Translations under genes and position numbers: made by a program
Shown here: in pieces, positions 1-824 of the stretch
How the letters are laid out: every line of letters begins with the position of its first letter
Numbering within the stretch: position 1 is the first letter of the stretch
The notes under the pieces: generated by a model
Databases searched by the model: none
What the model was told of the DNA's origin: nothing
What the model saw: only the letters and a program-made list of their open reading frames with translations
Source: Escherichia coli
GTDB lineage: Bacteria > Pseudomonadota > Gammaproteobacteria > Enterobacterales > Enterobacteriaceae
Direction: 5' to 3' (one strand)
NCBI RefSeq assembly: GCF_003334355.1
Contig: NZ_QOWP01000092.1
DNA length: 1,238 nt

Positions 1-824
1 GCACTATGCGGATGCCATTCGTTATAATGCTCGAACGCCTCTGCAAGGTTCTTTGCTGCCGTTAACCCGTCTGGTTTAGGCATGATACTGATGTAGTCAC
101 GCTTTATCGTTTTCACGAAGCTCTCTGCTATGCCGTTACTCTCCGGACTCCGCACCGCCGTGTTCTTCGGTTCAAGCCCCAATATCCGGGCAAACTGCCG
201 TGTTTCATTAGCCCGGTAGCATGAACCATTATCCGTCAGCCACTCTACTGGAGACGCCGGAAGCTCGTTGCCGAAGCGGCGTTCCACCGCTCCCAGCATG
301 ACGTCCTGTACTGTTTCACTGTCGAAGCCGCCCGTAGTGACTGCCCAGTGCAGTGCCTCACGGTCACAGCAGTCCAGCGCGAACGTGACTCGCAGTTTTT
401 CTCCGTTATCACAGCGGAACTCGAACCCGTCAGAGCACCATCGTTGATTGCTTTCTTTCACGGCCACTTTGCCAGTATGTGCCCGTTTCGATGGCGGTAC
501 AGCGGTTTTTCGCTCAAGCAACAGCGCATTCTGGCGCATGATCCGGTAAACACGTTTGGCATTGATCGCAGGCATACCATCAAGTTCGGCCTGTCTGCGA
601 AGCAGCGCCCATACCCGACGATAACCATACGTGGGCAGCTCTCCGATAACATGGTGTATACGGAGAAGCACATCCGTATCATCTGAGTGACGGCTGCGGC
701 GACCATCTTTCCAGTCATCGGTTCGTCTGAGAATTACGTGCAACTGCGCACGCGACACCCGGAGACAACGGCTGACTAAACTTACTCCCCATCCCCGGGC
801 AATAAGGGCGCGTGCGCTATCCAC
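1..824 (-). CDS. insD: IS2 OrfB / InsD, DDE transposase catalytic domain; 3' end truncated by the window edge (about 274 of about 301 codons visible)
   Basis: Hand translation of the - strand in the frame whose codons occupy (3k..3k+2) gives an uninterrupted reading from GTG (824-822) to position 1: [43 protein letters not shown]...WCSDGFEF...WLTDNGSCY...[16 protein letters not shown]...[13 protein letters not shown]. The DDE triad is present: D at 429-431, D at 231-233, E at 123-125, with a conserved K seven residues after the E. The ORF is absent from the supplied track because it has no stop inside the window. Confidence 0.85.

Follow-up and report, generated by a model that had tools for sequence, protein, structure and literature searches.

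An IS2 copy of a common lineage fills a 1238-base Escherichia coli window and very probably stops 93 bp short of its right end at a record boundary

The window, that is, the whole 1238-base stretch of DNA that was analysed, consisted entirely of the insertion sequence IS2 of the IS3 family. The element lay on the minus strand and was represented by positions 1-1238 of 1331, with 0 bases outside IS2 and no host DNA at either edge. IS2 is among the earliest insertion sequences described. A megablast comparison with 5426 complete E. coli genomes matched the window in 4883, at a median of 4 places in each, and RefSeq labelled the matched places as an IS3-family transposase with programmed frameshift. 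The sole full-length match with 100% identity among the complete E. coli genomes was found in the chromosome of E. coli PSS-12 (L001, 3001-4238). Compared with IS2A of K-12, the window showed 52 substitutions over 1238 bases (95.8% identity) with 0 indels, and the full-length PSS-12 copy showed 57 substitutions over 1331 bp (95.7%), with the same length and 0 indels. In ISfinder, an element is an isoform of the reference when the two are 95% or more identical in nucleotide sequence. Both the window and the full copy were isoforms of IS2 on this scale, near the threshold. Chance was not an issue for the identification, since 4883 of the genomes were matched and IS2-specific NCBIfam models scored above their curated cut-offs. 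A search of both strands of the window against Rfam with E values up to 1 gave no match, which meant that no curated frameshift-element family covers IS2. The window is an IS2 copy of a common lineage that is already known, with no departure from the described element, and the copy was apparently an ordinary, intact element.

The insC gene (orfA) was located at 782..1147 on the minus strand, with 121 codons from an ATG at 1147 and a stop codon, and corresponded to the helix-turn-helix repressor and N-terminal transposase part. Its product scored 276.4 bits with the NCBIfam model NF006928 ('IS2 repressor TnpA'), whose cut-off is 229, and the match covered positions 1-121 of 121. Residues 8-87 matched Pfam HTH_Tnp_1 (4.7e-18), and InsC thus carried the N-terminal helix-turn-helix of the IS3 family. 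Compared with K-12, insC contained 19 synonymous and 0 non-synonymous changes, and the InsC protein was identical. In the program-made list of open reading frames, insC was extended upstream to a GTG at window position 1192, which gave a product of 136 amino acids (782-1192, minus strand). A 136-residue insC product was also recorded on a public contig (L009). Because the GTG overlaps the documented extended -10 promoter, this longer form is probably an artefact of gene calling, with no real N-terminus at the GTG.

The insD gene (orfB) occupied 1..824 on the minus strand and contained codons 1-274 of 301 and two bases of codon 275, with an open frame and no internal stop. It partly overlapped insC (782-1147, minus) in phases 0 and -1, with AAAAAAG in the overlap, which is the layout of the IS3 family. 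This A6G slippery heptamer (A AAA AAG) was located at 824..830 on the minus strand, where a programmed -1 frameshift is predicted to produce OrfAB (InsCD). The part that this heptamer plays in IS2 frameshifting has been described (PMC3219604). The initial annotation had placed the left edge inside insD, and the minus-strand translation agreed, as the InsD frame ran uninterrupted to this edge. The 13 InsD codons that it quoted at 1-40 occupied window positions 3-41, within a base or two, and bases 1-2 were the first two of codon 275 (Ala). Despite the truncated protein, InsD matched the NCBIfam model NF006918 ('IS2 transposase TnpB') with 640.9 bits against a cut-off of 597, over profile positions 1-274 of 301. 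Pfam matches were obtained for HTH_21, rve (2.8e-19), and rve_3 (1.3e-13). The comparison of insD with K-12 gave 23 synonymous and 11 non-synonymous substitutions, and the InsD proteins of the window lineage and K-12 differed at 11 amino acids, 10 of them inside the window. Judged from the letters, this mostly silent substitution pattern looks like that of a functional lineage under purifying selection.

In the IS3 family, the catalytic triad has DD(35)E spacing. In the window, D198 of InsD was found in the motif WLTDNG (231..233, minus), and E234 was found in the motif NGIAESF (123..125, minus), 35 residues from D198 and with K241 7 residues downstream. D132 of InsD (429..431, minus) corresponded to D240 of OrfAB (108 + 132 = 240), which was reported as the first catalytic carboxylate (PMC3219604). 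D132, D198, E234, and K241 were all within the window and in the rve domain, as in the DDE transposases of this family. E228 (SPESNG) was also considered as the catalytic Glu and was rejected, because E234 has the family spacing.

The left inverted repeat (IRL) was located at 1197..1238 on the minus strand and comprised 42 bp, IS2 positions 1-42. Its outer end was 5'-TAGACTGG, and the terminal dinucleotide was TA-3', not CA-3'. The sequence of this region (TAGACTGGCCCCC...CACTTAA) was the same as that of K-12 IS2A and agreed with the 42-bp IRL and TA-3' terminus reported for IS2 (PMC3299598). The last base of the window was the outermost base of the IRL, and target duplications adjoined this IRL end in four complete copies. 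This confirmed an earlier statement that the window ends exactly on the outer base of the IRL with no host DNA on either side. The sequence TTAAATAAGT (IS2 positions 39-48; 1191..1200, minus) was present and includes the binding site of the OrfA (InsC) repressor, whose position and function were reported in PMC3299598. It was followed by TGATAGTCT (IS2 positions 48-56; 1183..1191, minus), which matched the weak native extended -10 promoter PIRL. The first four bases of PIRL were reported as TGAT at base pairs 48-51 (PMC3299598), and TGAT was present in the window. A two-hexamer consensus scan of the window detected no sigma-70 promoter and no terminator. The null result for the promoter was expected and is no evidence of absence, since PIRL is a weak extended -10 promoter without a -35 element. 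Over the first 87 bases of K-12 IS2A, which take in the entire IRL and the promoter region, the window was identical.

These features have their place in the transposition cycle of IS2. OrfA represses the weak IRL promoter, and rare -1 frameshifting at A6G gives the OrfAB transposase (PMC3299598, PMC3219604). OrfAB cleaves only the 3' end of the right inverted repeat (IRR) and joins it beside the IRL, and the resulting figure-of-eight is processed into a minicircle. In the minicircle, the two ends lie 1 bp apart and together make up the strong promoter Pjunc, and integration of the circle follows (PMC3299598, PMC3219604). The 5-bp target duplication of integration was observed in the four complete copies. 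IS911, IS3, and IS150, which follow the same copy-out-paste-in route, share with IS2 a pair of overlapping frames with a -1 frameshift, an rve-fold DDE transposase, terminal repeats that match imperfectly, and passage through a figure-of-eight and a minicircle (PMC3299598, PMC3219604). Unlike these elements, IS2 has functionally asymmetric ends, in which the IRL (TA-3') only receives and the IRR alone donates, and its junction promoter is functional only with the 1-bp spacer (PMC3299598). The donor end is the part that was absent from the window.

The absent part was examined in complete copies. In the identical PSS-12 copy, the element extended over L001 2908-4238 (1331 bp), so the window was short by exactly 93 bp at the IRR end, where roughly 90 bp had been estimated. 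In this copy, the 93 bp supplied the third base of codon 275 (Ala), another 26 codons, TAG as the stop, and 11 bases after it, and the last 41 bases were the IRR. The IRR (...GGGGCAAATCCA), which in IS2 is an imperfect 41-bp repeat with a CA-3' terminus, aligned to the IRL at 31 positions with one gap. TTCAT was found on both sides of this copy, which splits ymgC. The other three copies, on plasmid p14EC007b, in 30COLEC, and at the second PSS-12 place, differed from the window by one base. They were complete with an IRR, and the 5-bp duplications CTCAT, ATATC, and AGTGC were found among them. The initial annotation had expected that InsD would run on to a stop beyond the left edge, that the IRL would have an imperfect inverted counterpart there, and that a 5-bp direct repeat would flank the element. 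In the homologous complete copies of the lineage, from which the IRR, stop, and duplications were established, all of these were present as the 27 residues of InsD that the window lacks, TAG, the 41-bp IRR with 31 matches, and the four duplications. In the case of the identical copy, the interrupted gene ymgC (L001 2834-4418) is the last gene of the ycgZ-ymgA-ariR-ymgC biofilm/acid-resistance cluster, beside bluF/bluR.

We then focused on the left edge of the window, which is IS2 position 1238 (window 1..2, minus). Position 1239, which follows, is the third base of the Ala275 codon and varies between two common IS2 lineages, with A in the lineage of the window and G in that of K-12. K-12 IS2A differed from the window lineage at five sites in the IRR-proximal 93 bp, namely 1239, 1269, 1281, 1282, and 1305, which were at most 30 bases apart, and the element ends at 1331. 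The longest run common to both lineages beyond 1238 was 29 consecutive bases, and within 1-1238 there were several common stretches of at least 44 bases. Of 6139 matching records from complete E. coli genomes, 5963 continued past the edge without interruption. No break at position 1238 was observed in 60 rows sampled from these 6139 records, which is weak evidence because only the best place per record was covered.

In public assemblies, the exact 274-residue truncated InsD was found as a called product in 31 blocks, all of them on contigs shorter than 5 kb. As an exact-protein look-up selects ends within one codon by construction, this count has weight only against the controls, in which a 262-residue product was found in 2 blocks, a 270-residue product in 14 (fairly frequent too), and the full 301-residue product in 71. 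All ten contigs with the 274-residue InsD that were read ended on the same base as the window (...CATAGTGC). They came from different samples and included Logan contigs, SPAdes-style NODE contigs, and scaffolds, and two of the 274-residue contigs began just after other lineage-variable sites (178 and 316). A look-up of the K-12-type C-terminal fragment gave 13 contigs that started at IS2 positions 1208-1210, about 30 bases upstream of the edge. Ten of this set were read, and they carried G1239 and a K-12-type right end and continued through the IRR into eight different host flanks. The corresponding window-type 36-residue C-terminal fragment of InsD was not on record as a called gene. IS2 contigs tend to end at position 1238. 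A second recurrent contig end was observed at IS2 position 1226 (L018, L019), 12 bases inside the edge of the window, and this was the end with the 270-residue InsD in 14 blocks. Among the contigs that start at 1209, K-12-type right ends from several samples adjoined genes associated with virulence: a lymphostatin-like gene in L028 and L032, which shared one junction, an NleG effector gene in L029, and type III secretion genes in L030.

One base of the window was distinctive. At window position 780 (plus strand; IS2 position 459), the base was A, corresponding to T on the coding strand. The substitution was silent in insD (Ser15, AGC to AGT), lay two bases past the insC stop, and destroyed a HindIII site (AAGCTT). 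The other base was found at 459 in K-12 IS2A, L002, L003, the second PSS-12 copy, and all 10 truncated contigs. Among the compared copies, only the PSS-12 ymgC copy shared the base of the window. The 40-mer of window 761-800 had no exact match in genome_contigs, metagenome_contigs, or viral_contigs.

Based on these results, the window is very probably positions 1-1238 of a 1331-bp IS2 copy of the common lineage, and the missing 93 bp reflect the boundary of a collapsed-repeat contig. A record boundary was the most likely cause, instead of a deletion. Both edges of the window would be points where the IS2 copies of a sample stop being identical, which are the junction of IS and host at one edge and position 1239 at the other. 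Differences inside 1-1238 would form closed bubbles that the assembler merges. The fork opened at 1239 would never close before the differing host flanks, so that no simple bubble forms and the contig stops at 1238. From the comparison with K-12, this fork is expected to stay open because the differences beyond it are spaced too closely to rejoin the paths. The fork would arise from two lineages in one sample, with their internal differences merged by the assembler. It would have to come from two lineages since no copy in complete E. coli genomes was window-type to 1238 and then carried G1239. The corresponding queries gave no 100% match, and the best matches were 99.7% for the single-SNP query and 99.3% for the chimeric query with a K-12-type tail. 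The near matches were mosaics with crossovers elsewhere (L024, L025), and a single recombinant copy was thus not demonstrated as the cause of the fork. Since each edge lies where IS2 copies part from one another, the window is likely a complete short contig with no sequence past it, and reading 200 bp beyond each edge, as had been proposed, is probably not possible for this record.

The same edge could also be explained without a collapsed repeat. The window might be a slice of a longer assembled record with an arbitrary left edge, such as ymgC::IS2 of a PSS-12-like strain. Across the three annotated collections that were searched, 100% identity was reached by the PSS-12 ymgC copy alone, and the second PSS-12 copy lacked the distinctive base of the window. 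However, an arbitrary cut is unlikely to fall at the outermost base of the IRL and directly before a variable site, the source was reported as 1238 bases long, and the edges matched no annotated feature boundary in L001 (transposase CDS 2919-4147, window 3001-4238). PSS-12 has four IS2 places, two of which were read. It need not be the origin, because its copies differ at IS2 position 459, which would be a variant site in a short-read assembly. We considered a slice improbable. A remnant that truly lacks the last 93 bp, having lost the IRR donor end and 27 residues from the transposase C-terminus by deletion or by insertion of another element, would be unable to transpose. Such a truncation would remove the sole donor end of the element (PMC3299598) and residues 383-409 of OrfAB, including the end of the catalytic domain, which spans residues 236-398 (PMC3219604). 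The window shows nothing past 1238, and damaged or nested IS2 copies do exist, as in L024, where the IRL end was replaced among IS1, IS3, and IS30 fragments, and in one plasmid (H114), where the IS2 sequence was confined to the outer 85 bases at the right end. However, the 60 sampled rows showed no such break, and the reading frames were undamaged. The break lay exactly before a lineage-variable base, and contigs from about 30 bases upstream went on with a normal IS2 right end. The other edge was also an exact repeat boundary, as a collapsed repeat predicts. A real truncation therefore appeared quite improbable. It was judged highly improbable that the end at 1238 belongs to a real and widespread IS2 derivative without the IRR donor end, either at a fixed junction with another mobile element or as a one-ended immobilised copy on a successful plasmid or lineage, where forks would come from coexisting intact and truncated copies. 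With a collapsed-repeat contig as the preferred reading, a short window made up entirely of repeat sequence, with its edges on repeat or variant boundaries, is to be read in this way, and its insertion context is not recoverable from the record. The biological weight of the window is very small.

The lineage of the window was found in several contexts. The transposase WP_165467183.1 was the same RefSeq accession for the PSS-12 ymgC::IS2, plasmid p14EC007b, the 30COLEC chromosome, and the second PSS-12 copy; the ymgC copy was 100% identical to the window, and the other three were one base away. Besides E. coli chromosomes, the lineage was carried by Salmonella enterica plasmids, with 99.8% identity. 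Plasmids of Escherichia, Klebsiella, Salmonella, and Shigella, together with a small number of phage records, matched the window as a whole. IS2A of K-12 MG1655 (insC1/insD1, NC_000913.3 381260-382590) showed the same order of IRL, insC, A6G site, insD, and IRR.

Many complete IS2 copies were mosaics of K-12-type and window-type sequence, as observed in other E. coli records (L017, L024, L025, L026). L024 changed lineage between 1107 and 1161 and L025 between 1239 and 1269, and in L017 a K-12-type left part was joined to a window-type right part. On sequence comparison, these mosaics point to frequent recombination or gene conversion between copies. In L024 (1-2692, E. coli NMBU_W05E18), the first 46 IS2 bases at the IRL end were replaced by unrelated sequence within a nest of IS1, IS3-family, and IS30 fragments.
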